A stretch of DNA of 64,000 bases from positions 22,970 to 86,969 of the forward strand of contig MHFR01000043.1 in NCBI GenBank assembly GCA_001804285.1. Reading direction: 5' to 3'. This stretch comes from Candidatus Danuiimicrobium aquiferis (GTDB taxonomy: Bacteria; Omnitrophota; Omnitrophia; Omnitrophales; Danuiimicrobiaceae). The translations under genes and the position numbers were made by a program. Positions 1 through 58,686 of the stretch are shown here, one piece after another (position 1 is the first letter of the stretch; each line of letters starts with the position of its first letter). The notes beneath the pieces are model-generated. The model saw only the letters and a list, made by a program, of their open reading frames with translations, was not told where the DNA came from and did no database searches.

Positions 1-810
1 CTTAAAGAAATCGAAAACAAACGTGGAAATAGCACCGTAACAAGAAATTTACGACTCGCCTCTTTAAAAACATTTTTCTCCTACCTGATTACAAAAGACA
101 CGCTAAGGGTAGGTCAATATCAGAAAATTATTTCCATTCCCCTTAAAAAAGCTTCCCATCCCCTCATGGAATATCTGGAGGTCAACGAAGTCAAAGCTAT
201 TCTCAATGCCATTGACCGAGATGCATTTTCCGGTGAGCGCGATTACACGCTTCTCAACCTACTCTACAATACAGGAGCTCGAGTCCAAGAAGTCTGCGAC
301 CTTTCGGTAGGCGCTATTCAGTTGCATCATCCATCCTTTGTGACAATCACCGGAAAAGGACGCAAAACCAGACAAGTACCCCTTTGGCCTGAGACCGCCC
401 ATTTGTTAGAGTCCTATTTGACAGGTCGTGCCTTACTCGACAAACCGGATGCCAAGCTCTTTTTGAATGCCCGAGGAGAAACGCTAGGTCGATTTGGAAT
501 CCGGTATATCATTCGGAAAAGGATTGCTGGCGCCATTGATGACTGTCCGAGTTTGGCTAGCAAAAAAACAGGTCCTCATACCTTTCGCCATACGACGGCG
601 ATGCACTTGCTTCAAGCCGGCGTTGATCTCACGGTAATAAAAAGCTGGTTAGGTCATGCAAATTTATCGACAACGCATGGCTATCTTGAAATCGATCTTG
701 AAATGAAACGCAAAGCGCTTTCCATGTGTCACCCTGTAGGAAAATCTGTAGATTTGAAGAAATTCATGGAGCGAAACAAGGATGTTATCAGCTGGCTAGA
801 GTCCGTTTAG
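1..810 (+). CDS. Tyrosine recombinase / phage-type integrase, 5'-partial: the reading frame is open from base 1, and the ORF track only starts at the internal Met at 166
   Basis: C-terminal catalytic region with HTFRHTTAMHLL...GHANLSTTHGYLE (the R..H..R..Y catalytic signature). In-frame upstream residues NSTVTRNLRLASLKTFFSYL resemble the N-terminal core-binding domain. Confidence 0.8.
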   Translation, partial: LKEIENKRGNSTVTRNLRLASLKTFFSYLITKDTLRVGQYQKIISIPLKKASHPLMEYLEVNEVKAILNAIDRDAFSGERDYTLLNLLYNTGARVQEVCDLSVGAIQLHHPSFVTITGKGRKTRQVPLWPETAHLLESYLTGRALLDKPDAKLFLNARGETLGRFGIRYIIRKRIAGAIDDCPSLASKKTGPHTFRHTTAMHLLQAGVDLTVIKSWLGHANLSTTHGYLEIDLEMKRKALSMCHPVGKSVDLKKFMERNKDVISWLESV

Positions 811-889
811 TCATTAAAATTATGTGAAGTGAATCGCGTAAGAATTCCAACCCTGGCAACGTCTTCCGCCACTAACTGCACATAACAAA

Positions 890-1396
890 CTACTCAACAT
901 AAAAGCCATTATGTGGAGCTCCACATAAAGGTTTATAGGCAGTTTTGCAAAAATCAAAATGCCAGCCTTTTCCGTTTTCTTCCGTAGGATGTGAAGCGAA
1001 ATAATCGGAATGCTCCTTCGGGATGAGTCTCGGGAAAAAACAGGTCTCATGACTGCAATCTCCCGAGCAGGTCCGTTTATCGATCGTTTCACCGCCAAAC
1101 CACGGCTTCGATCTGACATCTTCAAGCCATGGATTAGCGATACCGCCTGCAATTTCTGACGGCCATGCAATCCCCAACTCGTGAGTGGCCGGATGATGGC
1201 ATTTCGCAAGACCGTTGAAAGAAATCAAGGTTTTATCGATGGTGGGTGTGCCCTCGCCGTCGCCATCAGCCAATTGAATCCCGAATTTATCGAAACTCGG
1301 CATTAACTTTTGAAAATCTGAGGCGATTCCGGCAAAAATGCCCGGCTCAATTTCTTTATCTTTCCGATACCAATAGTGTGTATATCCCATGTTCAA
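890..1396 (-). CDS. Hypothetical protein (168 aa), contains HHPATHELG and several Cys/His
   Basis: Long ORF co-directional with the downstream minus-strand cluster; no recognisable domain. Confidence 0.45.
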   Translation of the reverse strand: MNMGYTHYWYRKDKEIEPGIFAGIASDFQKLMPSFDKFGIQLADGDGEGTPTIDKTLISFNGLAKCHHPATHELGIAWPSEIAGGIANPWLEDVRSKPWFGGETIDKRTCSGDCSHETCFFPRLIPKEHSDYFASHPTEENGKGWHFDFCKTAYKPLCGAPHNGFYVE

Positions 1397-1478
1397 GACC
1401 TCCCTAAAAATAAAAAAGGGAAGAGACCCGAAGGCCGCTTCCCTTTTTGAAGTTGATATTCTTGTTTTTGAAAATTCT

Positions 1479-1868
1479 TTACTTCTGTTCGTTCCAGTTC
1501 CAGATAACGCTATTGACGTTTACGGGAACACATTTACGTTCTAAATGTTTACACCGTTCCGCTAACTCAAGAGCGGGGTTCTTTGCTTCCGCTGAAAAGG
1601 CAAACGAAAGATCGTAATGCTCCACGTGTTTTCCTTTCCAATAGACGTATCCTTCATGGTCGATCGTCAGATGCTCAACCCCATGAAGGAACGGCTTCTT
1701 GTATTTTCCGGAAGTTACTTCTTCGTGAAGTTCCTTAAACTTTCTTTCTCCTTTTTCATTCAGAAATCCATTGACGGCATTTTCGAGCAATTTCAAATGC
1801 TCGGGTGAAAGGTCCCCGCCGTCATTTGTTCTTGTTAATATGTCACACGCCATTCCACAGAAATTCAT
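1479..1868 (-). CDS. Hypothetical protein (129 aa)
   Basis: ORF co-directional with the cluster; no recognisable motif. Confidence 0.45.
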   Translation of the reverse strand: MNFCGMACDILTRTNDGGDLSPEHLKLLENAVNGFLNEKGERKFKELHEEVTSGKYKKPFLHGVEHLTIDHEGYVYWKGKHVEHYDLSFAFSAEAKNPALELAERCKHLERKCVPVNVNSVIWNWNEQK

Positions 1869-1893
1869 ATCTCAATCCTCCTTCGTTATTTGT

Positions 1894-2535
1894 TTAGATT
1901 GCCACAGCCACTTTCACTGTTTTGGGCACCATCACTTCTTCCTCCGTGATTTTGTGAGATTTTGCAAAATGGATGAACGACTCCACCGCTAAATCACATG
2001 TTCTGTCAAAATCTTTCACTAAAATCAAACGGCGGCGAAGATCCTCATGGCTCCACGATTCATAATCGCAATCGTCATCAGTTCCACGACCGGGATATGT
2101 GAATGGTTGCCAAAGAGGTCCCCGAAGAAGCTCCAACGTTCCGGAACAGCCTTCAACATGGCAAGGCTGGCGGGTTTCATACCATGTCGGAATAAAACAG
2201 TCCGTACAACACGTCTTATGTCCCGAATCTTTCTTACCGCCCTGATACAAAACCAGGTAGCCTCCGCTTCTTCCGTTTTGACCAATCTGCCACGCATAGT
2301 CATGACGGATAGCAAAATCGTGAAGAATCGCTGAGAACTCATCAAAGGATTCAGGAATGTCCAGCATGTCGTAACACTTGAGTTCCGTTTCTCGGTCAAG
2401 ACCGAGCTTACGGACTTTGATGTTTCGCGCATAACTGGTCGCTCTATTCCATGAATTTCCGGTGTGATACCGAAAATGCTCTTTCAATAGTTGACGCATC
2501 TTCTGTTTTGATCTTGGTGACTCTGTCATATTCAT
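1894..2535 (-). CDS. Hypothetical Cys-rich protein (213 aa)
   Basis: ORF with CCTDC...C.H..CxG cysteine cluster; function unknown. Confidence 0.45.
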   Translation of the reverse strand: MNMTESPRSKQKMRQLLKEHFRYHTGNSWNRATSYARNIKVRKLGLDRETELKCYDMLDIPESFDEFSAILHDFAIRHDYAWQIGQNGRSGGYLVLYQGGKKDSGHKTCCTDCFIPTWYETRQPCHVEGCSGTLELLRGPLWQPFTYPGRGTDDDCDYESWSHEDLRRRLILVKDFDRTCDLAVESFIHFAKSHKITEEEVMVPKTVKVAVAI

Positions 2536-2620
2536 ATCGTTTTCTCCTTCCCGAATAAAAATGTGTCCGGATGTCTTTCCGAGTTTGCTGATTAGAATTC
2601 CGCAATCGGGCGGATTTTCG

Positions 2621-3706
2621 TTATTTTTTTCCGGGCAGTTTCACCATTTTCCCAAATGATCCTGAAAAACTGCCTTCCGGCGTAATACACCAGAGAGTCT
2701 GAAATCTGGACCGTTCAGGATAATCACCGCAACCGTCTGTGAGATAGACAAGTGCATCCGGTCGAAGTTTCTCGGCCAGTTCAAAAACAGGTCTGAAACT
2801 TGTTCCGCCACGGCCTGAAACCGCTTTCGGACGCGATTTATAACGGTACACATTTCCCACTTTCGCATCGCATTCCGCGACCGTGACATCCATCCCCAGG
2901 GCCTTGATCTTCTCGATCTCGGTGAAAAAGAGCGAAAGCTCTCTGTCGCTGACACTGCCGCTTGTATCAAGTCCAATTAAGAGCTTCAGTTTCTGTTCTA
3001 CCTTCTCACCCGGCAGTTCCTCAAATCTCCGGTTCGGACGTTTTCTTGAAAAAACAGATTTCAAGAGCGTCGCATGGATAAGAAATCGCTCGAGTACCCG
3101 TCTCCAGTTAATTCCTGATTTTTCGAGAAACTCTTTCAGCGCTTTTTCCATGGTGCCGGGAAGTGAACCGTAATCTTTCGTCTCATCCAACGAAACTTTA
3201 ATGGAACGCCTTAAGAATTCCTGCTGGTATTCAGGGTCCTCGATTGACTCTTTCCAAAGATCGTGGTCATCAAGCATGTCTGAACTCATCTTTGCGGTCT
3301 TGACTTGGAGATTCCCAGCGTTCTCGACAAGCTTCTTGTAATACCATTCCGCGGTCTCATATTCCCCAAGATCGAAGAGCTTTGGAAGGAGAGCGGTTTT
3401 GGGAAGGCTCTCAATATATGGATTGATCGCAAGATCGCAGGCAATATTGAAAACCCGCTTGTCTTTGCCGTCTCCTCTGAAAAGATGAAGGTTTAAAAGA
3501 TGAAGCACTTCATGTTCAAGACAAGCGACCCGTTCCTTGAATTCGAGACCTTGAAGAAACACGGGGTTATAGTAAAGATTGATTCTGTTTGTGATATTGA
3601 CGCCGAGTGTCGGGACCCTCTCGGTTTCAATCCTGTTCATCTGCTGGATAAAATGAGCGTAAAAAGGTTTCGTTCTGACGAGTGAAACGACCATTTCTTC
3701 AATCAT
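2621..3706 (-). CDS. VWA-domain protein with N-terminal HExxH metallopeptidase-like domain (DUF2201-like partner of MoxR)
   Basis: HEVLH motif in the N-terminal third and a LIGLDTSGSVS MIDAS-like VWA motif further along. ATG at 3706 has an AAAGGAAG RBS and overlaps the upstream stop by 8 nt; the ORF-track start at 3730 is a TTG. Confidence 0.7.
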   Translation of the reverse strand: MIEEMVVSLVRTKPFYAHFIQQMNRIETERVPTLGVNITNRINLYYNPVFLQGLEFKERVACLEHEVLHLLNLHLFRGDGKDKRVFNIACDLAINPYIESLPKTALLPKLFDLGEYETAEWYYKKLVENAGNLQVKTAKMSSDMLDDHDLWKESIEDPEYQQEFLRRSIKVSLDETKDYGSLPGTMEKALKEFLEKSGINWRRVLERFLIHATLLKSVFSRKRPNRRFEELPGEKVEQKLKLLIGLDTSGSVSDRELSLFFTEIEKIKALGMDVTVAECDAKVGNVYRYKSRPKAVSGRGGTSFRPVFELAEKLRPDALVYLTDGCGDYPERSRFQTLWCITPEGSFSGSFGKMVKLPGKK

Positions 3707-4082
3707 GATGTCTTCCTTTCTTTGAATCAAATAATACGGTTTTGTTTTTAATCGCCTGTTCGTAGGCCACGTAAATCACTTTTCCTTTTGCGATCTCAAG
3801 CGCCCAATTGTCATCTCGCTCTTCCCCCGAGGCATCAATCCAACCTTGAACGTGCCCCGGGAAAGCTCTGACAATAGCCATCGCGAATTTTTCAAGTTCT
3901 TCGTGATAATTTTTCCAGTTGCCGAAGACGGAAATATGGAGGCCCTCCTTTGTTTTTTCGATTTTGACTTCATTCCGCCAGCCCGGAAAACGGCTCCTTA
4001 AAATATGGTTAAAACGCTTCAAGTCTTTTTCTTTCAAATCATCCATGTCGATACTTCCCGAAAAATCAGTGTAGTAACCCAT
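3699..4082 (-). CDS. Hypothetical protein (127 aa) wedged between the MoxR and VWA genes
   Basis: ORF with an 8-nt overlap onto the VWA gene start, consistent with translational coupling. Confidence 0.5.
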   Translation of the reverse strand: MGYYTDFSGSIDMDDLKEKDLKRFNHILRSRFPGWRNEVKIEKTKEGLHISVFGNWKNYHEELEKFAMAIVRAFPGHVQGWIDASGEERDDNWALEIAKGKVIYVAYEQAIKNKTVLFDSKKGRHHD

Positions 4083-4097
4083 TTGATTTTGCCCTCC

Positions 4098-5144
4098 CTA
4101 GGCTGCCTGTACCGCTTGAGCGAGTTTCTCGGAGAATTTCTCCTGCCCGTGAAGATAGATATTGATCTCTGGAATCTTCACAAGCTCTTTGGTGAGCGCA
4201 AATGCAAGATCGACCGGAAGTTCATCAAGAAACTCAAGCAGATTTGCTTTTTCTTTCTGGGACAATGCTTTTGCTTTTCCTTCTTTTGAAAGAATCCTTA
4301 AAAGCTCATCCCCCGTAATTCTTAAAAGATCAAGTCTCGCTTTCTTTCCAGTCGAATATTTCTTGACCCGGGATTTCACGTCGGAATAATCCGAAAGGAC
4401 GTCTTCTGCTTTAATAGGCAGCTCCTGATCTTTCTTCAAACTTTCAATAAAAGCGATCGCCGCTTCTTTTCCGACAAGGCCCATCGCGCATTGGAGCCAG
4501 AGTCGGTCCTCAAGCCCGATTAACATTCTTGAAAGCATCTCCCAAGATCTGGGGGAAGGAAGCACCTCTAACGGAAGATCTCCTGCCTGACTTCCCAGAA
4601 GATGGGGATAGCGGGCAATTAGATTTGAAATATCTTCTCTTATTTTTCCCGTGTCTTTTCCCCAACCGAGCCATTCGTTGGTTTCAGGTTTGAAGTGAAT
4701 GTGGATGAAGCGATCCAGCAATGCCGGATCCAGTTCGTTAACGAAATAATCGCTTCCGGACGGATTTGAAGCGCAGACGATTTTCCAGCCATCGGGAAGA
4801 TGGTGCGTATGGAGCCTTCTTTCAAGAACAAGCTGAAAGATCGCCTGAAGAACGTCAAGGCGAGCGCGGTTGAGTTCATCAAGAAAAAGGATCCCTGAGC
4901 TTTTGTCCGTCGGAAACCATGACGGTTTGAGCCAGACAGTTCTTCCGTTTTCTTTGGAAGGAAGCCCGATTAAATCTCCGACTTCCATTTGACCGAGCCT
5001 CAAGTCAACGCATTCATATTTAAGTTCTTGGGCAAGCTCTTGAACGATCTGGCTTTTTCCGATCCCGTGCTGACCCCAGATGAGAGGGGTAACGCTGGCG
5101 TTAAAACATTGTTTGAGTACTTTTACTAAATCGGCGGTGTTCAT
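4098..5144 (-). CDS. MoxR-like AAA+ ATPase (AAA_5 family)
   Basis: Walker A GQHGIGKS, Walker B ILFLDELNRA, and the typical MoxR length and layout. GAAAGGA RBS. Confidence 0.8.
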   Translation of the reverse strand: MNTADLVKVLKQCFNASVTPLIWGQHGIGKSQIVQELAQELKYECVDLRLGQMEVGDLIGLPSKENGRTVWLKPSWFPTDKSSGILFLDELNRARLDVLQAIFQLVLERRLHTHHLPDGWKIVCASNPSGSDYFVNELDPALLDRFIHIHFKPETNEWLGWGKDTGKIREDISNLIARYPHLLGSQAGDLPLEVLPSPRSWEMLSRMLIGLEDRLWLQCAMGLVGKEAAIAFIESLKKDQELPIKAEDVLSDYSDVKSRVKKYSTGKKARLDLLRITGDELLRILSKEGKAKALSQKEKANLLEFLDELPVDLAFALTKELVKIPEINIYLHGQEKFSEKLAQAVQAA

Positions 5145-5206
5145 AAAAAGTCCTTTCGATTGGTTGTCTAATGAATTGGTTTTGGAATGACGAAAACGCG
5201 CAATGC

Positions 5207-6262
5207 TTAACGATTGAAGAAGTAGAGGATCTCGCTGAAGGAAGTAAAAGTCTGGCGGCGGAAAAAATAATATGAACCGCGCGTAGGGTGCGCGACTTCA
5301 ATACCGCCCAGTTTAGGTGAAATCCAAAGCAGATGATAATGAAAATGCTTGAGATAATACCATGCCAGTGCAGCGATCTTGTCCCGGTCCTCGCATGGAA
5401 CCGGCCTTGGAATTACCTTCTCTTCAATTACTTTGCTTGAAACTGTTCCGTCATTGAAATATCGGTAGGGCTGAACGATTTTGAATTTTTTTCTTTTAAG
5501 TGGATGAGCAACTCTCCACTCTGATTCTTTCGTTCTATATCTCGGCCGATACATCAATTTTTTTCCGCCATAAGCGAGAAGCCTTAAGAATTCTTCAGCG
5601 TTTCCGTACTGACGCCGGATACTTTGTAAGCACTGTTTTACCGTTTCTTCTTCCGTGACCATACAGTGCTTGATTATTTTTTGACTATTGAGACAGCAAG
5701 TCCCCTCGTAAATGCATCGTGAACAATATTTTGCTATCTTTTTTTCCTGATACTCCCATAAGTGGTGCGAGACGATCCGCATTTTCCTGTTACGCCGGAT
5801 CGTCTTGGAATTAAATTCAGTCCAGTTTATGTGTGGTGTGTAAAACCCGGAGAATTTGTTCACATCGGTAGGCCGGAGCTTCTTCCATCCATCAAGTGAA
5901 ATCTGAAACGCTTTAACATGGTCCACGGGATCAAAGGAACAACCGTTCGGCGCGATATTACGGTCAAAACAGTTGCCAGTGATCCCGTTCAGCTTGTTTT
6001 TGCATAAATCGCAAAATTTGGGATCTCTCATATTCCCATCTATCAGGATATAAGGTTTCGGATCTTCATCTAAATCTCCCCAGAGAGGATGATAACCATT
6101 TCCTGATGTTTCGACAGGCTTGCCTTTCACCTCACTTAAAGGAGTAATACAAAGTTTTTCCGACTCTTTCCTGACAAGGCAGGAGTCCGGTTTCAAAAAA
6201 TCAAGATCCTCCGGATTTGGGAAAACAAATGTTCCTTTTATCTTGGTGTAAACTTTTTCCAT
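5207..6262 (-). CDS. Cys-rich protein, paralogue A (351 aa), putative Zn-binding; function unknown
   Basis: Shares FCDLCKxKLNGITxNCFDRNI..GCSF and KYCSRCI..G.C..NS.KI..HC.V..EE.T..CLQ.I...GN.EEFL.LLAY blocks with the adjacent gene. Strong AGAAAGAGGA RBS. Confidence 0.6.
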   Translation of the reverse strand: MEKVYTKIKGTFVFPNPEDLDFLKPDSCLVRKESEKLCITPLSEVKGKPVETSGNGYHPLWGDLDEDPKPYILIDGNMRDPKFCDLCKNKLNGITGNCFDRNIAPNGCSFDPVDHVKAFQISLDGWKKLRPTDVNKFSGFYTPHINWTEFNSKTIRRNRKMRIVSHHLWEYQEKKIAKYCSRCIYEGTCCLNSQKIIKHCMVTEEETVKQCLQSIRRQYGNAEEFLRLLAYGGKKLMYRPRYRTKESEWRVAHPLKRKKFKIVQPYRYFNDGTVSSKVIEEKVIPRPVPCEDRDKIAALAWYYLKHFHYHLLWISPKLGGIEVAHPTRGSYYFFRRQTFTSFSEILYFFNR

Positions 6263-6295
6263 GTTAGTGTCCTCTTTCTAAGGTTGTGACAAAAA

Positions 6296-7402
6296 CTAAC
6301 GCTCAAAGCGTAGAATGTCGTTGAACGAACGAAAGATTTTGGTCTGACGGCTAAGCTGCCAGCCGTAAGGGTAATACATCACTTCAATTCCACCCGTAAC
6401 GGGAAGAACAGAAAGCACACGGATGGTCCGTCCCCGGTATCCCCGGTAAAAACCTCTGCCGTTTAAACAATACTTTTCAATAAAAAACCATGAAAGTGCG
6501 GCAATTCTCTCCCGGTTTTCTAAAGGGACCGTTTCCGGTGTGAGCGCTTTCTCTACCTTCCGCCTTGAGACTTTCGTCATTTTGAAAGGCCCATAGGCTT
6601 TGCGCACGAGAAAATGATTGCGGCCAAATGGTCTTGAAACCAGCCACCTCGATTTTCGGGACGCTTTCAACGGTCGATGAACGATCTCCTGTCCCGAATA
6701 GGCCAAAAGTTGAAGAAATTCCTCAATATTTCCAAACCTTTTCTGGATTCTCTGCAAGCAACGCTCGATCGTTTTCTCCTCAGTCAGCACCTTGCAATGT
6801 TCCGCAATTTTCGTGCTGTTCATGTAACAAAGTCCGTTAAAAATGCAGCGGGAGCAATATTTTTCTTCTTTGTTCTCGAGACATTCCCTGAAATTTGCTC
6901 TCACTTTCCGGGCATTTTTGTTTCGCGCAATTGTCTTTGCATCAAGACCAATATACTCGGCGCTGAACGGCTTTCTGAAAGGGGAATACCTATTTGCGTC
7001 AGTAGGCGCGAGATACTTCCAACCGTTAAGGTCAATATTAAATTCGGCCGGTTTTTTAAGCGGGACAAATGAACAGCCTTTGGATTTTATATTTCGATCA
7101 AAACAATTCGCCGTAATTCCGTTCAACTTATCTTTACACAGATCACAGAATTTCGCGCTTCTGCTCTCACCTCCAAGAACCAGAGATTTTTCCGCTTTTT
7201 CTCCATCGCTATAGATCCTGAATATTGAGTCCCACCTATCCGAACCCGTTTCAACCTCTTTTCCAGTTAAACATTCAAGAGATTGAACGTATAGCTGCCC
7301 TTTTCTCTTTGCTACAACGCAGGAGTCGAGCCTAAGTCCGCTCAAGTCCCCCGGATCATTCAGCACATAAATGTCCTGCAATTTTGTATAAAGCTTTTTC
7401 AT
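6296..7402 (-). CDS. Cys-rich protein, paralogue B (about 368 aa), putative Zn-binding; function unknown
   Basis: Collinear similarity to 5207..6262 across the whole length. Preferred start is the ATG at 7402 (AAAAGGAG RBS) rather than the ORF-track start at 7420. Confidence 0.6.
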   Translation of the reverse strand: MKKLYTKLQDIYVLNDPGDLSGLRLDSCVVAKRKGQLYVQSLECLTGKEVETGSDRWDSIFRIYSDGEKAEKSLVLGGESRSAKFCDLCKDKLNGITANCFDRNIKSKGCSFVPLKKPAEFNIDLNGWKYLAPTDANRYSPFRKPFSAEYIGLDAKTIARNKNARKVRANFRECLENKEEKYCSRCIFNGLCYMNSTKIAEHCKVLTEEKTIERCLQRIQKRFGNIEEFLQLLAYSGQEIVHRPLKASRKSRWLVSRPFGRNHFLVRKAYGPFKMTKVSRRKVEKALTPETVPLENRERIAALSWFFIEKYCLNGRGFYRGYRGRTIRVLSVLPVTGGIEVMYYPYGWQLSRQTKIFRSFNDILRFER

Positions 7403-7419
7403 GATGTCGCTCCTTTTCA

Positions 7420-7920
7420 TTATTTTTGCTGTTCAAAACGGATCCCTTCCAAGAAATACTGATTTAGCTTGTCTCTTACGTCATAATAAATATTCGCCAT
7501 CTCCTTCTGAAGCGCCTCGCTGGTCGGCCACACAAAATTCCATGCTTTAGAATCATGTTCACAAAGCACAACGTCTTGAAATATCACAAGCACGTGAGTG
7601 GTATCTTCATATGTGGGATCAACATAAATCGAGATCCCTGAATTGTGGATTTTCTTTTCGCGAAGATATTCATTCTCGACCTTGTCCCTGATGACACTGA
7701 AAAAGTCGTAGTATTTCGATTTGATTGCATAAAGGAGATCTTCCCCGACAAATTCTTCAGGAACACAACCTTCCTGTGGCTCCAAGTAAATTCTTCTTAC
7801 GAGGGCACATCCTTCATCCTCATGCCCCACTTCAAAGACACCTTGATAGCGGCTGAGAAGAAGCTTCTTTAATCCGTCATAAAGCTCGCAACTGAGTACT
7901 TCGCGTTTTGGATATTCCAT
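7420..7920 (-). CDS. Hypothetical protein (166 aa)
   Basis: ORF directly upstream of the Cys-rich pair on the same strand. Confidence 0.5.
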   Translation of the reverse strand: MEYPKREVLSCELYDGLKKLLLSRYQGVFEVGHEDEGCALVRRIYLEPQEGCVPEEFVGEDLLYAIKSKYYDFFSVIRDKVENEYLREKKIHNSGISIYVDPTYEDTTHVLVIFQDVVLCEHDSKAWNFVWPTSEALQKEMANIYYDVRDKLNQYFLEGIRFEQQK

Positions 7921-8147
7921 TGCTTTGCCTCCTTATCGTTCCATTTCTTCAATAATTTTTTCATGTTGAAGGTTTTTGGGAACGGGCGGGAAAATTTCTT
8001 CCCGCCCGATCTCCGTTTAGATTCCTTATCTCACTTCAACACGCCAACCGAAGCGCCTGAATCTCTCAATCAGATTTGTGTGCATTCCAAGTTTTTCTTT
8101 TTTCACAATGAGTGTTTTCATGTAACAGCCCTCCTGAAAAATAGAAA

Positions 8148-8176
8148 GGAGAAGCAAAAAATGCTTCCCCTTTTTC
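8148..8176 (-). terminator. Rho-independent terminator-like hairpin (GGGGAAGC / GCTTCTCC) followed by a T-rich tract on the minus strand
   Basis: 8-bp stem with one G-U pair and a 7-nt loop, followed by TTTCTATTTTT. Confidence 0.4.
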
Positions 8177-8201
8177 ATATGTTTTTTTGTTTAAATGAAA
8201 C

Positions 8202-8432
8202 TTAAGTTTTCGCGCTCAATTCATTTTTTGCGCGAGTGATCCCTTCGTGAAGATCGGAAGCGAATTCCGAACTCACCGTGACCCCTTTTTTCGTTGGGAT
8301 CCAATCAGAGCCTTTCTCACCTTTGCAAAACACTCTGATATCAATGTAGATCTTTTCTTTGTATGTCCGGAGCGAAGTCCTGATTTCCTCAGTTTCGCTT
8401 CTTTTAAATGAATGAACCATATGAGATTCCAT
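8202..8432 (-). CDS. Hypothetical small protein (76 aa)
   Basis: GGGAGGAA RBS 7 nt upstream of the ATG; a terminator-like hairpin lies downstream. Confidence 0.4.
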   Translation of the reverse strand: MESHMVHSFKRSETEEIRTSLRTYKEKIYIDIRVFCKGEKGSDWIPTKKGVTVSSEFASDLHEGITRAKNELSAKT

Positions 8433-8511
8433 GATTTTCCTCCCTAAAATAGAAAAAGGGAGAAGCGGTTCTCAAAAACCACCTCTCCCCTGGGTTATGC
8501 TCAAAACGGGA

Positions 8512-9030
8512 TTAAGCCGCTTGAGTCATTGATTCTCTTTCGGCCGTGTCTGGTTCCATGCTCGAAAGTGCATCGACCACGCCGTCAATAGACGATTCCA
8601 GAATGGAAAGAGCTTTCTTTCCGCTCGGAATAAAATTTCCGTTATCTCCTTTGGCAGCATAACAGATCCGAACAGAACTGTTCTTCGGACCTCGCACCTT
8701 CGAGATTTGATATTGTTGGGTCTCGGAAATTTCAACGGCTGTAACGAGCCGTGTCTCGCATTTCTTTCCGTCGGTTGGCATCGGAAGTTCAGGCTCATTC
8801 TTCGCTGTCATGAGCGCTGTTGCAACTTCCCGGCGAAACTTTACCAGGATGTTCATCCCTTCTTTTGCTTTTTTGAAACCGCCGTCTTTCCTGTAAAACA
8901 CATGAAGATCCAAAAAAGGGTCACCCTTTTTGCCTGTCCAAGCGCAGATTCGATAAATATCATTCTCGAATCTGGGAACGTCCTTAATGATCTTGTTTTG
9001 ATTCTTGTTGTTTTCGTTCTGGGTATTCAT
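8512..9030 (-). CDS. Hypothetical protein (172 aa)
   Basis: ORF with no recognisable motif. Confidence 0.45.
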   Translation of the reverse strand: MNTQNENNKNQNKIIKDVPRFENDIYRICAWTGKKGDPFLDLHVFYRKDGGFKKAKEGMNILVKFRREVATALMTAKNEPELPMPTDGKKCETRLVTAVEISETQQYQISKVRGPKNSSVRICYAAKGDNGNFIPSGKKALSILESSIDGVVDALSSMEPDTAERESMTQAA

Positions 9031-9214: not shown

Positions 9215-11068
9215 TTACTTTTCGTTCTTCAGCTCCTTAATGAATTGAAGTGGATTTTCAATCTCATCAAACACCTGCTCTTTTTCATGCTGTGTTTTCG
9301 GCTCCTCTTTTTTCTCTCCGACTTCCCTCGCTTTCTGGGGCTTTTTTCCATTCTTCTTCGAGCTTCGGCCTTGGCCTTGTACAAAATCAGAGGGATAACT
9401 GGAATAACCGAAGAAATCGAGTTTTACATGCTCGGTTAAAAGCGATGGGTTTTTCCAAATCACCGCGGCCTCGCCAACTTTGAGTGCCCGAATGAGGTCC
9501 GGCTCAATCCGAAAGGTTTGACCTTCTCTTACGGATCCTGCTCCCGTAAGACCTTTCCCCAGTATTTCTTCACGAGTTTGATATGTTGAAATCATGGTCC
9601 GGCGCGTTCCCGCGATTCTCGTGAATTTTTCAACCGAATAAGGATCATCCTGCCTGAGAATGATTTTGATATTGGTGTTTTCGATGACTTGCTGGGCAAA
9701 GGTGGGAACTCCCCGATAAACCAAATCGCCCGGTGACTGATGAAGAATCGTGACGGCAAAACCGCTTGCACGGCACTTGTTCAAAAAATCGATGAAATTG
9801 AGTTCCAGAAAACTTGACGCATCATCGATATAAACCGGGAAAAAATGACGGTTAAAAGACGTGATATGACCTTGTATATGGCTTGAAACAGAACGAATAT
9901 CCTGAATGATCATCCGCCCCAAACGGCGCGAAGTATCGGCGTATTTCTGTAAATCGAGGGCAAAATAGCAGATCTGATTATTTTCATAGATCGACAAGAG
10001 ATCGATTTCAGGTTCGTCAGTATCGAGAAGATTTGAGAATTCGCTTCGCGATGAAAGAAAAAGATCGGACATTAAACCTGCCAGAAATTTATGATTGTCC
10101 TTGAAACCGCTCACCATCTTGCCGATGTCCTCTTTGAGGACCGGATCTTTGGTCTCAGTCGATAGTTGTTTGAGAGCGTTAATGTCAGTGAGATAACCAA
10201 GAAGCTCACGAAAACGGGTTGTCTTTCCGGTCGAAACGATCGCGTTTAAAAGCGTAAGCGCCGCCTGCTCTGCCATACGGCGATAGAACTCTTCACTCCA
10301 GGCCATGCTGTTGATAAGTTTATCTTTAAGTTCGGTCGCATTACCGCGATAGAGAGGATTATAGGTGTTGGATTTTTCCGGGTGGCTCAACGAGAAGAAG
10401 TAAAAATCATCTTCTCGTTCCTTTTTGTGGACGATGTATTGGATTTTGTTTCTGAGATCCAGGTCGCCCTTGCCGTCGATAATGATTGCACCCTTACCGT
10501 GTGCAAGGTCATGAGCGAGCATCGGCAGAAGAACGGATTCGGTCTTGCCGGTGCCCGTGCTCCCGACAACCTCGCAATGCATCTGGCGTTGATCATTGGT
10601 CAGATAAAGCGGCTTCCCTCTATTTAAACCGTAACCGAGATAAATCTTGTGATAATCGGATTTGAGCCTTTGTCTTCGCATGAGAGCGGGATCAGGTTCT
10701 GGTTTATCGCCTTCCGGCTTGAACAGTTTCGCTTCCTGATTCAGATGAGCAACGGCCAAAAAGACGGGTAACGCGATCACGATGTAGACAAGGAAAAAGA
10801 AGCTAAACTTAATGCTCGATTCCCAACCCGAATTGATCGCTTCACTTTCGAAAATCAAGTTAAGCAAATCAAAGAACGCGCCTATGCTAAATGCGCAAAC
10901 GATCGAAAGAACAGTCAAAATCCCGAGAATCAATCTTTCAAGCCATGGCCTTTTGATTTTCGGAATAAGAACCAGAATACCTTTCGCAATCGTAAGCGGA
11001 ATTCCAATAAAAATTCCTCCGACGACCTTGACGATGAGTGACTCTTGTTTTACCGGAGGCTTTTGCAT
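9215..11068 (-). CDS. Membrane-anchored P-loop NTPase, TraD/TraG/VirD4-like type IV coupling protein
   Basis: N-terminal TM helices, Walker A GSTGTGKT, IIIDGKGDL (DPKGD-like) motif, Walker B VYIDDASSF, and a lysine-rich C-terminal tail. Confidence 0.55.
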   Translation of the reverse strand: MQKPPVKQESLIVKVVGGIFIGIPLTIAKGILVLIPKIKRPWLERLILGILTVLSIVCAFSIGAFFDLLNLIFESEAINSGWESSIKFSFFFLVYIVIALPVFLAVAHLNQEAKLFKPEGDKPEPDPALMRRQRLKSDYHKIYLGYGLNRGKPLYLTNDQRQMHCEVVGSTGTGKTESVLLPMLAHDLAHGKGAIIIDGKGDLDLRNKIQYIVHKKEREDDFYFFSLSHPEKSNTYNPLYRGNATELKDKLINSMAWSEEFYRRMAEQAALTLLNAIVSTGKTTRFRELLGYLTDINALKQLSTETKDPVLKEDIGKMVSGFKDNHKFLAGLMSDLFLSSRSEFSNLLDTDEPEIDLLSIYENNQICYFALDLQKYADTSRRLGRMIIQDIRSVSSHIQGHITSFNRHFFPVYIDDASSFLELNFIDFLNKCRASGFAVTILHQSPGDLVYRGVPTFAQQVIENTNIKIILRQDDPYSVEKFTRIAGTRRTMISTYQTREEILGKGLTGAGSVREGQTFRIEPDLIRALKVGEAAVIWKNPSLLTEHVKLDFFGYSSYPSDFVQGQGRSSKKNGKKPQKAREVGEKKEEPKTQHEKEQVFDEIENPLQFIKELKNEK

Positions 11069-11074: not shown

Positions 11075-11854
11075 TCACAAGAGCCGGCTCAGTTTGAAAC
11101 TGGCCCGCTTATTTTCGAAAAGTGCTTCCTCCCTGTCATTAATGAGTTCATGATAAGTTGTCATCCATATTCGTTTGGCATTGTAATCAAGTGCCCTCAC
11201 AAGCCAATCCTTCGTATCTCCGTCAACGATCACCAGAAGCACAAGATAGTTTTCCTGCTCTCCATAGTGATGAAAAAGCTCCTGATAGCGCTCCATGCTT
11301 TTGGTCAGGTGATTCTCAAATTCAATCGCGATTCGCTTTCCGCGAATATTGAGAACGCCGTCCGGAATCGAGTGCAAATGGTCTCGCGCTCTTAAGAGCC
11401 GTTCACTCGTCCATGAGTCGAGACCAAGACCGCGAAAAAGAATGCGGACACTGATCACTTTCAAATCGTGGTCAATCGAGCGATCAAAGTCTTTCGTGGG
11501 TTCATAAAGCGAAATTCCAGAATCAAACCCACGTTCCCGAAGAATGACCAGAGCTTTCTCAGTGATAAAATAGATGTCTAAACTCTTTTTCTTGGAATAC
11601 CCTTTCCGCAAATAACCGGAATTAACGAGCCGTTCGATTCGCCGGTAACATGCCTTGGCCGGTTCGGATCGGCCCTTCCAAAATGCTTCCCGTATCTGGC
11701 CGTAAGCCAGATAACGGTGTTCGTGCGCAAGCTTAAAGATCGCTACATCCCGGTCGGTTATTTCAACTGCTTCAATAATCTTTGAGGCTGGCTCAAGGCC
11801 GTCTTCAATGTCACCACCAGCCTCAGACTTTTTATCTTCAGGCAATTCATCCAT
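11075..11854 (-). CDS. Replication-relaxation family-like protein (winged-helix N-terminus), putative mobilisation function
   Basis: Size of about 250 aa, an N-terminal DNA-binding-like region, and placement directly downstream of the coupling ATPase. The family assignment is from memory, not a search. Confidence 0.35.
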   Translation of the reverse strand: MDELPEDKKSEAGGDIEDGLEPASKIIEAVEITDRDVAIFKLAHEHRYLAYGQIREAFWKGRSEPAKACYRRIERLVNSGYLRKGYSKKKSLDIYFITEKALVILRERGFDSGISLYEPTKDFDRSIDHDLKVISVRILFRGLGLDSWTSERLLRARDHLHSIPDGVLNIRGKRIAIEFENHLTKSMERYQELFHHYGEQENYLVLLVIVDGDTKDWLVRALDYNAKRIWMTTYHELINDREEALFENKRASFKLSRLL

Positions 11855-11961: not shown

Positions 11962-12357
11962 TTACCTTGCAAAACTTCTGGCCGTTGAAATCGTTTGATT
12001 GAACCGGCCCCAAAGGTCGTTCAAAAGCAAACGTCTTTCTCGGCTCGCTTGGTAATCCTCCGCTGGTTTTTGAAACGTAACCTGCGGACGAAATGGTTGA
12101 GCCTTGCGAGCGCTCGGCATCTGTGGAATTATCAGATTTTTCGGCGTCTCTTCTTCCCACAGTTTTTGCCAAGATGCCCAAGCAAGATTAGAACCCCGAT
12201 ACATCAAAGTTAGAGTGGTTAAGGCCACAAAAAGCACAAAACCAAGACTGACTCCCGTACCGAACAATGCTCTAAATCTTGTCCAAAAATTCCTGGAAAC
12301 GTTTATTACGTTCACAGAAATTCCACGTTCTCCTCTTATTTCTAGTTCCTGTTTCAT
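11962..12357 (-). CDS. Small membrane protein (131 aa), hypothetical
   Basis: One clear TM helix (GVSLGFVLFVALTTLTLM) and an AAAGGAA RBS; preferred over the overlapping plus-strand ORF. Confidence 0.3.
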   Translation of the reverse strand: MKQELEIRGERGISVNVINVSRNFWTRFRALFGTGVSLGFVLFVALTTLTLMYRGSNLAWASWQKLWEEETPKNLIIPQMPSARKAQPFRPQVTFQKPAEDYQASRERRLLLNDLWGRFNQTISTARSFAR

Positions 12358-12583: not shown

Positions 12584-12645
12584 TGAACCATTCGACTACG
12601 GTCCCGAGAGTAAATATTATGTCGAGGGAGCGTAGTCGAATGGTT
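12584..12645. repeat. Perfect 16-bp inverted repeat (GAACCATTCGACTACG / CGTAGTCGAATGGTTC) with a 30-nt spacer
   Basis: Read directly at 12584-12599 and 12630-12645, inside a roughly 520 bp intergenic gap. Confidence 0.7.
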
Positions 12646-12876
12646 CGTACAGGTGAAAAATCGTGTAGAGCTTGATTAAATACGGCATGTCCGGGTGCGG
12701 GATGGAATCAATCTGTTAATGCTTTTCTTTGAGTATGTCGAACCGAATGTCACAATTTCTTTATTATGTGGAGCTCAACATGAAATGATCTATCAGCCAT
12801 CTCATTTGCTCCCCAAATTATTACTCGTCAAACCCCGACTGTCTCAAACTCAAGATTCCCAGTTCGCACCCAATGC

Positions 12877-17882: not shown

Positions 17883-18488
17883 ATGACCGAGATCCTCGTT
17901 ATCGATGATGATACAAATGTTTTAGATGCCACAAAAGATGCTTTAAACGCTTTTGGCTACGAAGTTCATACGTCCACTTCGCCCGACGAAGCTTTTCAAT
18001 TGCTTCATCAAAATCCGAATCGCTTTGATCTGATTCTTCTCGACTGGCAATTTCCCTGCGCTGTTCACGGAGATATGTTCCTCAAATTAATCAATCACTG
18101 TATTCCTGACTTTAAAAAACCCATTATCTTTATTACAGGCCATACATCGTTTATTTCAAAACATGCGATCCGGCTTGGCGCTTATGACACCCTCGCAAAA
18201 CCAATTATTGCCGATGTGCTAATCGATGCCGTCGAACGTGCTCTTCAAAAAAGACCGCCGGAAAATCCACATCAAAAAGTTCCGGCTGACATGAGCTGGC
18301 AGAAGCAAAAGAAATTGGAGCTTGCAATGAGAATCACGGATGCGATCATTTCCACTAATTCATTGTCTGATGCGGCCCAAAAGCTTGAATGCTCACGCAT
18401 GACTCTTAACCGCTGGCTTCGATTCACAGGGCTTAACTCGTTTGTCATTATCAAAGAACATCAATCTAAAGGGAAGATTACCCAATGA
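17883..18488 (+). CDS. Response regulator: CheY-like receiver plus C-terminal Fis-type HTH
   Basis: ILVIDDD...LILLDWQFP receiver motifs; C-terminal LECSRMTLNRWL helix-turn-helix. Confidence 0.8.
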   Translation: MTEILVIDDDTNVLDATKDALNAFGYEVHTSTSPDEAFQLLHQNPNRFDLILLDWQFPCAVHGDMFLKLINHCIPDFKKPIIFITGHTSFISKHAIRLGAYDTLAKPIIADVLIDAVERALQKRPPENPHQKVPADMSWQKQKKLELAMRITDAIISTNSLSDAAQKLECSRMTLNRWLRFTGLNSFVIIKEHQSKGKITQ

Positions 18489-18531
18489 ATTTCGAAATGT
18501 CAAACGCAAGACATTGTGATACAAAGACTTA

Positions 18532-18642
18532 TGTAACACATAATGTTACAAAAAAGAGCACCCTTCACCTTATGGGGTGTAACATAAGATGTTACACTTT
18601 TTGGGCATTATAAGGAAAAGGCATGTAACATTTTATGTTACA
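18532..18642. promoter_or_regulatory. Array of three 19-bp palindromes TGTAACA-N5-TGTTACA with 46 bp centre-to-centre spacing (candidate operator sites)
   Basis: Copies at 18532-18550, 18578-18596 and 18624-18642, inside the 190 bp gap between the response-regulator gene and the histidine-kinase gene. Confidence 0.55.
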
Positions 18643-18681
18643 TAAATTTATTTTCAAAAATGCGAAAAAAAGGCGGAAATA

Positions 18682-27900: not shown

Positions 27901-30900
27901 AAGAGCTGCATATCCCAGGATCTTCCCCCATGTCGGGCTAAATATCGACACAACAGCGCTTGCTACCGTCAATACGAACGAAATAACGAAGAAGAGAAAC
28001 GGAAGAAACGCACCTTGAATTTTCAATGCGGTTTCTTTAGAAACTTCTTTTCCCAACATGACCTTTTCCGTTGGAACAATTAAATAGCCGCCTTTGCCAT
28101 CAACATCCCATGTTTCAAGAAACTGATCTTTATCTATTGTTAAATCCTCCCCATTCTCACCCTTTGACACTTCCCGATAAAAAACTTCCGTCTCCGTGAC
28201 ATTCGTAATCTGTATATAATGATCTTTCGCTATGTGCGCTATGATTCTCAAAGAACATGGCGTTTGAGACGACGGACATACGGTACGATATAAATTGAGT
28301 AAATCGGCGTAGGTATATTGGACAGTCGAAAAATTATCATTATGAATCGCTGCCACTTTCATCATTGCGTATGCAGATAAAACAAGCTCTCCTGTCAAAA
28401 ATCGAGTAATCAGCCCCATCAAAATATCTATCAAAATCAGTTCTTTCCCGAGCACATCCGCTGCGACATTAATTCCTCGTGATGCGAGCATTTCTTTAAG
28501 CGCTAAATAGGCCGATTGCCCGAAATGCAGGTCTCGTGATTCAAGCCATGCAAGAATCTCGCTGACATCGGTCGAATCTAAATCGACTACGTCGCCCGGT
28601 TGTAATTTAAGTTGATTCAGCATGGCCTCTTTTGCGGCCGACTGTGCCGTGACATAATTTGTAAGAAATGTACGAACCCCGCTAATAATCGCCTGCTTCT
28701 CATTCAACCGTCGCGTTTTTTCGGAATTTGCGGAAGGATCGTTTAACCTGCTATAAAGAAGTGTCGTATCAACCGAAGGTGTATTTGTTCCAGCCGCATT
28801 CGGTTGATATTTCGCAAGCGTATCGTCCGTCCAATACTCAAGTTCTGCCGAAGACGGATCTCGCCCTAAAATACGGCGGTAATAATCGGAAAGAACCGGC
28901 TCCACTTCGCGTTTCAGAATGTCGCGTTCAATATCTTTCTTTTGATTTCCAAGTTCAATCAGCCGATCCGCTATCGCATTTTCTATCTCCTGTTTCCGAG
29001 CATCCACTTCCCCGGGAATAAGCGAAAGCTGTGTTTCCGCCGTCTGAAGAAGCTCTGTCCGTTGACTACGAAGCTGATTAATCGCGTCCTGAACCCCGGG
29101 AACTTCGAACCGTTCGACGTGACAGCCATACTTGAAACCCATAAAGTTTTTGCATTTCTTTATCTCCTGGTATTTCTGGCTTTCGTAGCTTGAAATCTGA
29201 CCGTCTATTGCAGCAATTCCGGAATCAAGGTTCTCCTGAATCTGCGCTCGCGCAACCTCATCCTGCCATGCAAGGTTTTGAAGCGCGTCATACTTTGTTT
29301 GCTCGATTTGATGTTGCTGCTCTATTTCGTCACTCACCAAATCCTGTCTTGCTTTCACCATATTCACTTTACTTAAAAGATAATCTTCCGGTTTGTTGCA
29401 AGTTACAGGACAAACATATTCATACGAATAAACCAAATTCCCATCTCCATTAAACACTTCTTTAATCCGGCCATTCTGATAATACGATCTTTGTCCGTCT
29501 AACCTTTCGGCGAGCATCATCTGATTCGAGCCGCCATAAACCGCCGATTTCTGTATATCTTCGGATGGCTTCAGGCTCTGGTATGCCACCATAAATGCCG
29601 AGTATGCGTCATTCGCGCTAACCGCAGTTTTAACGATCAAAGGGTTATTGCTCCATTTTGAATCGCTTGTAATCGGCTTGTTTATTTCCTCCTCGGATTC
29701 TATCGTGCTTGATAAATCAGTTTTATTTGCGGCTTGATGCCCGTTTCCATCCAAGAAGTTTTTATTTCCCATTAATAAATATTTTCCGCCGGAACTTTCC
29801 GCGTCTCCCAAAGTCAAAGGCCTCGCTCCCATATCTTTGAGTAAACTGGAGATATCGCTTCTGATCTGATTCATTTGCGGATCGTTGACCGCAAGGACCA
29901 TATATTCGCCATTCTTGATGTTTTCGAGAAAGTTCTTCAGTCCCAGTCGATCGGCAGCGGATGAAAATGTGCCGGAAAAAGAAAGCCACTGCCCTTCCGC
30001 TTCTTTATAGACCGCCACTAAAAAGCCGTCTCCATCGTGCCGGGCAACTTCCTTGCCGGAATCCATTAAGCGCTGCGAACCACCATCCGTTAATAACTCA
30101 ATGGGTTTTGGGAATGCCACACCTTGATAAGAAAATTGTTTTTTTCGATGAACAGAATATGAAATCGCCTCTCCGGCAGCATTCGTCTGATACGTAATAT
30201 CATCCGTCGTTCCCTGCGGCGTCTCCACTTTAATCAACCGGCCCTGCCGGTCATAAGTGTATTTGTTGTAAGCGTACCCGGCAAATTGACGGAATATTCC
30301 CGTATATTTGTAAAGCTCCACTCTTCGATAGGTTTTAAATCCGAGATAGCCGCCGTCTGCTCCCTGAACAAATTCCGGGTTATACGCGACCGGATAATCC
30401 ATGGGATAGGGCACGTCGAAAAGCTCACCGGTCTCAAGCCTGCCGCGGACAGGTAAGTAATTTTCAATTTCAAGAATCATCCCGTTTGCAAATTGGATCT
30501 GGCCGCTTTTAATCTTAAGTTCTTCATCAAATTCAAGATTGACGCCATGATCACCATTGGCAAATTTTATTTCACCTTTCGTCCCCTTATCGAATCCATA
30601 TAAAATCTGGGATCCGTCAGCTGCTTGAAAGCCCGACAAGGTAACTGCCCTCAAATCCTTCGCATCAATCAATGCTCGTTTATAATCGTCTTTCCACATA
30701 TATGGATATGACGATGAAAATTGAAAATCGGAATACGTGTATAAGTAACCGTCTTTTGTAATGTGTTTAATCAAATTTCCGTTCTTGTCATAAAACCATG
30801 TCGTTCCATCCTCATCCGTGACTTGCGTTTCTTCATCCGTAAAATGATACTGGCTGCTCTGAAGCACCTTGTTTTTATACGCAATCTCAGCACCGATCAA

Positions 30901-53609: not shown

Positions 53610-53639
53610 TTTGATGTTCTCCAGTTTGTTCAGAGATTC

Positions 53640-54026
53640 TTAACTTTTGTTCACCAGCTTTTTGATAATCTTAGTAATTATACCAGGCGTCATGTCGTCT
53701 GGCTTTTCTAAAACGTCGTCAACTAAACGAGCAATTCTTTCCTGCTGAAAAATGGGTTCTAAATGCTTAAAGGGAGTCGCTGACATAACAATAATTTTTG
53801 GTCTTCTAACCGCCTGTGAGAAACTTTTTATCACATCAACCCCTGAAACTCTACCCTCTAACCTCATATCAACAATCAAAACGTCAAATTGTGTATTTTT
53901 TAATAAGAACAATGCATCGTTTCCAGAGTTGGATACTGTAACGTCAAAGCCATCCGACACCAAATATTCCATCACAAAATTAGCAACATCTTTTTCGTCG
54001 TCAACGATTAGTATCTTTTCGCTCAT
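53640..54026 (-). CDS. Single-domain response regulator (receiver)
   Basis: ILIVDDEKD...VLIVDMRL...SATP...LEKP. Confidence 0.8.
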   Translation of the reverse strand: MSEKILIVDDEKDVANFVMEYLVSDGFDVTVSNSGNDALFLLKNTQFDVLIVDMRLEGRVSGVDVIKSFSQAVRRPKIIVMSATPFKHLEPIFQQERIARLVDDVLEKPDDMTPGIITKIIKKLVNKS

Positions 54027-54044
54027 AACTTTATTATAGTTAAA

Positions 54045-54890: not shown

Positions 54891-54898
54891 AAAAACCC

Positions 54899-58676: not shown

Positions 58677-58686
58677 TCTTTGATAA

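Follow-up and report, generated by a model that had tools for sequence, protein, structure and literature searches.

A 64,000-nucleotide stretch of contig MHFR01000043.1 from Candidatus Danuiimicrobium aquiferis (the window) carries, at positions 890-9030, an array of co-directional open reading frames (ORFs) on the minus strand. At the core of the array lie a gene for a MoxR-type AAA+ ATPase and a gene for a zincin metallopeptidase fused to a VWA domain, accompanied by two paralogous genes for Cys-rich proteins and by several small genes. The initial annotation of this DNA, made from the sequence alone, described about ten such genes and took them for a candidate NTPase-dependent phage-defence or conflict system in a defence island beside a tyrosine integrase. 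Every feature that it listed is present and the genes are indeed co-directional, but they number eleven. The block belongs to the backbone that is conserved in an integrative conjugative element (ICE) found in Candidatus Omnitrophota, and it is not a host defence island. As judged from homology, its ATPase/zincin-VWA pair is the mobile-element version of a pair known from phages as N4 gp24/gp25. New here are the genetic linkage of the Cys-cluster proteins and of a 127-aa protein to this pair and the position of the pair in an Omnitrophota ICE backbone.

The gene array and its place in the ICE backbone

The array reads from 9030 down to 890 and consists of the following features.

8512-9030, minus strand: 172-aa protein with two weak PC4-like repeats, probable single-stranded DNA (ssDNA)-binding protein (PC4 E 0.007, below the cut-off)
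8456-8491, minus strand: terminator-like 16-bp hairpin with a T-run, directly 3' of the 172-aa gene
8202-8432, minus strand: 76-aa PC4-family ssDNA-binding protein (Pfam PF02229, E 1.2e-9)
8145-8173, minus strand: terminator-like 12-bp hairpin with a T-run, directly 3' of the 76-aa PC4 gene
7420-7920, minus strand: 166-aa acidic orphan protein, which opens the tight operon and belongs to the conserved core
6296-7402, minus strand: Cys-cluster protein, paralogue 2, 368 aa
5207-6262, minus strand: Cys-cluster protein, paralogue 1, 351 aa, basic, with two four-Cys clusters and an SH3/Tudor-like barrel at the N-terminus
4098-5144, minus strand: MoxR-type AAA+ ATPase, 348 aa, N4 gp24-like
3699-4082, minus strand: 127-aa ferredoxin-like protein, whose gene runs 8 nt into the start of the next one
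2621-3706, minus strand: zincin metallopeptidase fused to VWA (DUF2201_N + DUF2201), 361 aa, N4 gp25-like
1894-2535, minus strand: 213-aa orphan protein with 8 Cys, accessory, no family match
1479-1868, minus strand: 129-aa orphan protein, accessory, no family match
890-1390, minus strand: 166-aa ORF, the 5' portion of a ~206-aa gene that is interrupted at ~929 (154 residues are authentic), as seen in the alignment with full-length homologues

The gene order, the 8-nt overlap at 3699-3706 and the 17-nt gap at 7403-7419 are all reproduced by independent gene calls on identical metagenome contigs. Hairpin terminators end both PC4-type genes, and the tight operon therefore begins at 7920, with the ssDNA-binding PC4 genes directly upstream. 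Within the 281-nt gap in front of the operon (7921-8201) lies a GC-rich inverted repeat of 13 nt (7980-8011), a possible operator or attenuator. Rfam and tRNA scans of the whole window were both empty.

The companion genes of the pair had been described as matching nothing recognisable. This description holds for the orphan proteins and fails for the 76-aa ORF, a PC4-family ssDNA-binding protein that scores 37.9 bits against a Pfam cut-off of 25. The 172-aa protein matches the same model weakly (16.3 bits), shares two weak local matches with the 76-aa protein (E 0.05 and 0.36) and has counterparts in the related loci L019 and L021 that the 76-aa protein also matches. (L-numbers denote the related loci and contigs that were compared; L001-L004 are longer contigs.) Pfam, PHROGs, NCBIfam and PADLOC searches on all eleven proteins gave matches only for the ATPase/VWA pair and PC4. 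Hydropathy reveals no membrane segment in any of the eleven proteins, a secretion signal is likewise absent, and the small orphans show no internal paralogy except for the Cys pair and the PC4 pair.

The co-directional array extends further right through a 131-aa gene and the genes for a relaxase and a coupling protein (12357-9215), in front of which lies a candidate origin of transfer (oriT).

12585-12646: 21-nt inverted repeat, candidate oriT, upstream of the relaxase operon
11962-12357, minus strand: 131-aa protein with one hydrophobic segment, which starts the co-directional array
11075-11854, minus strand: relaxase of the Replic_Relax family (Pfam PF13814, E 4e-7)
9215-11068, minus strand: type IV coupling protein, TrwB/TraG-like (Pfam TrwB_AAD_bind, TraG-D_C, T4SS-DNA_transf)

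Relaxase, coupling protein and candidate oriT, all expected of an ICE, are found beside the block. The Replic_Relax relaxase is syntenic in every related locus, and the coupling protein carries a transmembrane segment. The oriT-like repeat recurs upstream of the relaxase operon in L006, L011, L017, L021 and L009 with compensatory base changes, and its arms measure 17-21 nt across the related elements (21 nt in the window). The 131-aa protein is 56-65% conserved in related elements, reaches a Kyte-Doolittle maximum of 1.98 and has no match in a Pfam search. An XhoI-type restriction enzyme and its methylase also lie to the right of the cluster. The ICE's own integrase was not located, and the recombinases that are visible belong to a separate insertion described below. 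A megablast search of the region against plasmids gave no match.

The same gene order is found in at least eight other genomes at 40-87% protein identity, and all related genomes that are labelled to phylum are Candidatus Omnitrophota metagenome-assembled genomes. The shared order starts with the relaxase, the coupling protein and the 172-aa protein, followed by a variable part (PC4 or RadC). It continues with the 166-aa gene, the two Cys-rich genes, MoxR, the 127-aa gene and DUF2201. It ends with the 213-, 129-, 153- and 206-aa genes and small ORFs, DUF932, a sigma/helix-turn-helix gene, TrbC and VirB4/TraC. In L006, L007 and L011, which are syntenic relatives, the block is succeeded by TrbC and VirB4/TraC; the window's copy runs off the left end of the window. 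In relatives, the type IV secretion system (T4SS) genes lie 6-8 kb downstream of the block. The block is flanked by the relaxase and coupling protein genes and, in relatives, by DUF932, sigma/helix-turn-helix, TrbC and VirB4 genes in a maintained order, and it is therefore ICE backbone. The restriction-modification (R-M) genes at the end of the element are, unlike the block, its variable part. Conservation of the gene order in related genomes, which the initial annotation had proposed to examine, is hence confirmed, although as that of an ICE backbone. The conserved synteny contradicts the view that the block is a chance run of genes.

The ATPase and the zincin-VWA protein are the best-conserved products of the block. 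In tblastn comparisons, MoxR is 73-87% and DUF2201 68-78% identical among relatives. The coupling protein (48-79%) falls below this pair in most relatives and the relaxase (41-70%) in all of them, and the Cys-rich genes range from 40 to 58%. The distant versions L009, L010, L018 and L021 retain a single Cys-rich gene, MoxR, the 127-aa gene and DUF2201, with the exception of the 127-aa gene in L021, where it was not detected. The 166-aa gene is also retained in L009/L010 and L018, and its product is 44-63% identical across relatives, the distant ones included (a family of 27 clusters). In contrast to this core, the 213-aa and 129-aa genes are missing from all four distant versions; the 213-aa protein is 66-67% identical in L006, L011 and L017, and the 129-aa gene is distributed likewise. 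L009/L010 keep the module, and T4SS genes are absent from the 10 kb shown for these loci.

Two further observations concern the relatives. L006 (15243-15704) and L011 (15208-15669) contain an extra 153-aa gene between the 129-aa and 206-aa genes, with a weak match to the DnaJ CXXCXGXG zinc finger, which the window's copy does not have. Relatives also have RadC and a 70-95-aa ORF after DUF2201.

The ATPase/zincin-VWA pair and its companion proteins

The ATPase belongs to the MoxR type (Pfam AAA_5, E 1.9e-12, above the cut-off) and carries the Walker A motif GQHGIGKS, the Walker B motif FLDE (FLDELN), CASNP and LLDRF. Its nearest solved structures in the PDB are midasin, NorQ and CbbQ. The VWA protein with the HEVLH module matches DUF2201_N (PF13203, 2.4e-23) and DUF2201 (PF09967, 7e-19), both above the cut-offs, and combines HEVLH with an intact metal ion-dependent adhesion site (MIDAS) motif, DTSGS...GGT...TDG. 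Residues H65, E66, H69, D91, D247, S249, S251, T302 and D324 are invariant in a nine-member alignment of ICE, phage and plasmid proteins. PDB profile matches are to MJ1213, which we take to be a zincin, for the N-terminal part and to integrin I-domains for the C-terminal part. Both proteins of the pair had thus been named correctly from their motifs.

The pair has full-length homologues in phages. The ATPase matches phrog_1297 (5.4e-67, residues 1-345 of 348) and the zincin-VWA protein matches phrog_1314 (1.5e-69, residues 3-366 of 369). In BLASTP comparisons, they match coliphage N4 gp24 (2e-23) and gp25 (2e-22), respectively. The pair shares with N4 gp24/gp25 the ATPase-then-VWA order and adjacency, apart from the 127-aa insert. 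The zincin-VWA protein has relatives in 408 phage records (N4-like, PBS1/AR9, Vibrio, Moorella and Thermus phages) as well as in 90 plasmid records. An AAA ATPase gene adjoins the relative in six of the seven records inspected and lies 4.5 kb off in the seventh. The gp24 and gp25 genes are among the 14 core genes of 25 N4-like phages, have unknown function and are found on middle transcripts (Chan et al. 2014, PMC4193335). The AR9 pair (g028/g029) sits behind an annotated early promoter, and helicase and polymerase genes adjoin the pair in Presley and Moorella phages.

Plasmid relatives occur in other settings. A distant pair on the Sphaerotilus plasmid NZ_CP035707.1 (L022) lies among WYL, Sir2, DUF4804 and DUF262 genes, and that on a Chondrinema plasmid (L012) precedes genes for hypothetical proteins of 937 and 475 aa. 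The MoxR/DUF2201 family may have been recruited to different systems. On a Simplicispira conjugative plasmid, the VWA gene shares a leading-region-like stretch with DUF4942 and an orphan methylase gene; the main text of the Nature 2024 paper on leading-region anti-defence mentions none of VWA, AAA and DUF932.

The two Cys-rich proteins are tandem paralogues, as noticed at the outset, with 40% identity (E 1.5e-93). Their cysteines form two clusters of four, C84/87/98/108 and C180/183/189/200. Across the extended family, seven of the eight cysteines are invariant or nearly so and almost nothing else is conserved. Because conservation is nearly confined to the cysteines, these proteins are probably metal-binding scaffolds rather than enzymes. 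They are also strongly basic, with a net charge of about +20 to +30 (about +30 for the 368-aa paralogue). The structure prediction and fold comparison suggested in the initial annotation yielded an SH3/Tudor-like barrel at the N-terminus of the Cys-rich protein (AlphaFold2 model, predicted local distance difference test score (pLDDT) 79) and a generic ferredoxin-like fold for the 127-aa protein (pLDDT 87). Profiles of the 127-aa, 166-aa and Cys-cluster families detected nothing significant among PDB sequences and in Pfam. The Cys-cluster paralogues are probably zinc-binding and nucleic-acid-binding proteins.

The Cys-cluster family is rare, with 23 clusters among 5.8 billion proteins and 27 representatives among 1.84 billion, and every close member adjoins the ATPase/zincin-VWA pair. 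Distant relatives (22-25% identical) occur on phage-like contigs full of small co-directional ORFs, and MoxR or DUF2201 lies alongside in all four informative contigs (L033, L036, L039 and L041), in other gene orders. The Cys-rich gene is followed by MoxR in L036, directly follows DUF2201 in L033 and L041, and is separated from DUF2201 by ~1 kb of small ORFs in L039. Two of the small ORFs in L039, at 980-1168 and 1711-1956, are SWIM-like and zinc-ribbon ORFs, so that the neighbourhood contains additional small Cys proteins. At the phage-like loci, DUF2201 shares 44-57% identity with its counterpart in the window, against 22-25% for the Cys-rich partner, which indicates that the Cys-rich partner evolves much faster than the pair. 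IMG/VR scans found no member of the Cys-cluster family.

The 127-aa ferredoxin-like protein, encoded between the ATPase and VWA genes, often accompanies the pair. Its distant relatives are also on phage-like contigs; in L028/L029, DUF2201 lies 2.3 kb upstream, and in L028 a MoxR homologue is found further upstream of DUF2201. IMG/VR gave one weak match to the 127-aa family, with no pair nearby. The ORF wedged into the Presley phage pair was considered as a 127-aa homologue and rejected, as no homology was found on testing.

The RIT insertion and the wider window

The left side of the window is occupied by part of an insertion.

1-904, plus strand: right end of a recombinase-in-trio (RIT) element (Pfam Phage_integrase)

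This right end comprises a terminal inverted repeat at ~819-904 and, at 166-810, the last 214 aa of the first tyrosine recombinase. RIT elements are a class in which three overlapping tandem tyrosine recombinase genes lie between long inverted repeats. L001-L004 display this organisation, with three recombinase genes (337, 325 and 309 aa) that overlap by 4 nt, and the whole element spans ~3.2 kb (L001:12460-15634; window part 1-929) between terminal inverted repeats of ~85 nt. The trio, the repeats and an interrupted target place it in the RIT class, from which no difference was noted in gene organisation or inverted repeats. The target is the last gene of the cluster: its missing 54 C-terminal residues lie across the RIT element in L001, so that the 206-aa gene is split. 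The junction bears a perfect 20-nt palindrome, TTATGTGGAGCTCCACATAA (window 909-928), and the insertion is not present in relatives of the element. Because the gene halves flank the trio with its repeats, the left-hand integrase, which had been read as part of a defence-island context, belongs to a RIT element inserted into the cluster and marks no island boundary. The RIT element is an independent insertion and does not belong to the module.

Other genes of the window lie further away. A giant ORF of 5712 aa on the minus strand (24961-42099) has bacterial Ig-like (Big_3_2, Big_13, DUF7743) and RHS-repeat matches and is followed by an ORF of 1618 aa (42139-46995, minus strand); in L009, a giant RHS/YD-shell/peptidase S8 gene adjoins the element copy. 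The element is bordered by several genes for HisKA_7TM/GAF histidine kinases and for response regulators (17883-23023 and 52794-57160), and a similar kinase pair stands beside the distant element version in L009 (15388-21134). Genes for enoyl-CoA hydratase, beta-ketoacyl synthase and Methyltransf_20 at 57858-61438 are ordinary chromosomal genes of lipid/polyketide type and are unrelated to the cluster.

Function of the module and comparison with known systems

What is the biological function of the module in the element? We propose, with moderate confidence and on the basis of sequence comparison, that it is an ATP-driven chaperone-protease that serves the element and acts with nucleic-acid-binding zinc proteins. 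This proposal follows from the finding that the module resides on mobile elements, is conserved, is expressed early or in the middle phase, is cytoplasmic and lies beside DNA-handling genes. Gene content, synteny, homology, intact catalytic motifs and the tie between the Cys-cluster family and the pair are direct observations; from what is known of MoxR-VWA pairs, we infer the biochemical steps as follows. A MoxR hexamer would spend ATP on remodelling a client, the VWA domain would hold or present the client via its MIDAS site and the fused zincin would cut the presented client. The Cys-cluster proteins would be element-specific clients or targeting partners on DNA, and the 127-aa and 166-aa proteins could possibly fill similar roles. 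Such activity would help the element to process, replicate or establish its own DNA in the cell.

Several points weigh against this proposal. Virion assembly is the one role proposed in print for the phage pair (PMC7824862), and it is not literally applicable to an ICE. One distant plasmid member lies in a defence-like context (WYL, Sir2, DUF262). The Cys-cluster partner, being duplicated and evolving faster, would also suit an arms race as one of its components. If transfer followed the F/RP4 pattern, genes downstream of the relaxase would enter last, which does not favour a role in early establishment. Moreover, deletion of analogous MoxR/VWA backbone genes in SXT changed transfer by no more than 10-fold (PMC2791158).

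Beyond the element-serving chaperone-protease, we tentatively raise the possibility that the Cys-cluster protein, MoxR, the 127-aa protein and the zincin-VWA protein form an unrecognised multi-component machine common to conjugative elements and phages. Such a machine would extract DNA-bound proteins at the expense of ATP and cleave them. Its targets could be host proteins that act against foreign DNA as it enters or replicates, or DNA-processing proteins of the element itself. If this is true, the shared machine would offer a first clue to what the N4 gp24/gp25 core genes do. An anti-defence or establishment role of the leading-region kind is attractive, and we keep it only as a possibility, given the location of the block downstream of the relaxase. 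The module may also play a part in conflict more broadly understood, of the element against its host.

A narrower function is conceivable but unlikely, namely that the pair, in the manner of NorQ/NorD, CbbQ/CbbO, CoxD/CoxE or the ATV tail chaperone, is only a maturation or assembly chaperone, which inserts metal into, or assembles, a machine encoded by the element, with the peptidase performing a maturation cleavage. Candidates for this machine are the Cys-cluster metalloproteins and the conjugation apparatus, and for phages the virion. The kinship of the ATPase with NorQ, CbbQ and midasin agrees with such a function, and adjacent proteins with eight invariant cysteines are plausible clients for a metal centre. 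Iyer et al. (2021) proposed the jumbo-phage pair as a chaperone-cochaperone in virion assembly, for which the ATV tail chaperone is a precedent (PMC7824862), and the T4SS genes of relatives are located 6-8 kb downstream. However, the Cys-cluster family is missing from most phages that have the pair, the IMG/VR scans for it were empty, and the phage pair is located among early/middle and replication genes rather than structural genes. Furthermore, L009/L010 keep the module next to 10 kb of sequence free of T4SS genes, and the cluster proteins lack membrane and secretion signals.

The defence function that was originally suggested fares worse, and we consider it improbable. It would make the cluster a cargo-borne NTPase-dependent anti-phage or anti-plasmid defence or exclusion system, in which a MoxR/VWA switch frees the peptidase or effectors on invasion. 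MoxR, a vWA-peptidase and a fast-evolving third protein do resemble published MoxR-vWA conflict systems (PMC7159879; PMC12839542). The duplicated and rapidly evolving Cys-cluster partner, the distant plasmid member among Sir2, WYL and DUF262 genes and the nearby XhoI-type R-M system point in the same direction. Nevertheless, no credible defence match was obtained. The best match in PADLOC-DB v2.0.0 is DolB (E 7e-4, 16.9 bits), which reflects the generic AAA core, and the VWA protein and the orphans have none; among the NCBIfam defence models, IteA reaches 15 bits against a cut-off of 510. The hidden Markov model searches that the initial annotation had called for therefore identified the pair and PC4 and no defence family. 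The block is fixed backbone rather than variable cargo, the pair is the most conserved part of the element and the same pair is core to strictly lytic N4-like phages, with early/middle-phase expression. The integrase that suggested an island is the unrelated RIT insertion. The mobile context with conjugation and R-M genes was rightly recognised, whereas the defence island was not borne out. The initial annotation had also stated that a core-metabolic context or CoxD/CoxE-type companions would speak against defence; on this count it stands, as neither is seen in the related loci. That the cluster is no functional unit, but an accidental run of unrelated hypothetical cargo genes beside the pair, is hardly credible, since the order 166-aa - Cys - MoxR - 127-aa - DUF2201 persists even at 40-50% identity, start and stop codons are closely spaced or overlapping, and distant Cys-cluster and 127-aa relatives again stand beside the pair on unrelated phage-like contigs, even though most companions have no detectable family and the two accessory genes are lost in distant versions.

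The range of hypotheses is narrowed by two findings: no part of the ICE backbone is more conserved than the pair, and the eight-cysteine family is tied to the pair in both ICE and phage-like contexts. They make a virion-only role unlikely and open a DNA-associated, element-serving role to testing in N4 and E. coli. The question concerns a widespread pair that is core to all N4-like phages. The present study also provides a first account of an ICE family from the phylum Omnitrophota, knowledge of which comes almost entirely from metagenomes. Furthermore, the combination of MoxR, VWA, an integrase and R-M genes is, by itself, no reliable signature of a defence island.

Known systems resemble the module to different extents. 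The housekeeping pairs NorQ/NorD, CbbQ/CbbO, CoxD/CoxE and RavA/ViaA share with the window the ATPase clade, as judged from the nearest solved structures, and a MIDAS-bearing VWA partner. The window's pair differs from them in the zincin on the partner, in its context exclusively on mobile elements and in the lack of metabolic client genes nearby; no metalloenzyme-client genes of a CoxD/CoxE-type module are found in the window or any related locus.

The MoxR-vWA ternary conflict systems (PMC7159879) are similar in the MoxR ATPase, the vWA-peptidase fusion and the presence of further, rapidly diverging proteins. With regard to effector fusion, the window's zincin is fused N-terminally to the VWA domain, and metallopeptidase effectors are only rarely reported in these systems (Kaur, Burroughs, Iyer and Aravind 2020, PMC7159879). 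None of their third components (VMAP, iSTAND, a beta-propeller with bpMoxR, FtsH) was found by Pfam in the neighbouring proteins, and the bpMoxR model scores 20 bits on the ATPase against a cut-off of 27. Moreover, the ternary systems are host-encoded and enriched in multicellular prokaryotes, whereas the window's module is element backbone and its pair is core in lytic phages.

The backbones of SXT/R391, IncA/C, R478, Rts1 and pCAR1 contain a conserved and unexplained MoxR (CobS-like) and VWA set near ssDNA-binding and recombination genes (PMC2642839, PMC2791158). The SXT-type set is dispensable for laboratory transfer (an effect of no more than 10-fold), and a zincin domain is not described in its VWA proteins, unlike in the window's. 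SXT s067-s070 were considered as homologues, which was not demonstrated; the window's VWA protein retrieved no enterobacterial IncA/C-type plasmids, and the likeness is one of analogy only.

The closest counterparts are the phage pairs: N4 gp24/gp25 (PHROG 1297/1314), AR9 g028/g029 and the jumbo-phage MoxR/MPTase-vWA pair. The window's pair differs in residing on an ICE rather than in a phage, in the 127-aa gene wedged between its two genes (the wedge ORF of the Presley pair is non-homologous) and in being preceded by the Cys-cluster family and the 166-aa protein, neither of which N4 has. Nonetheless, both proteins correspond to their phage counterparts over the full length and are encoded adjacently in the same order, and intact Walker, HExxH and MIDAS motifs and carriage on mobile elements are common to the ICE and phage pairs.

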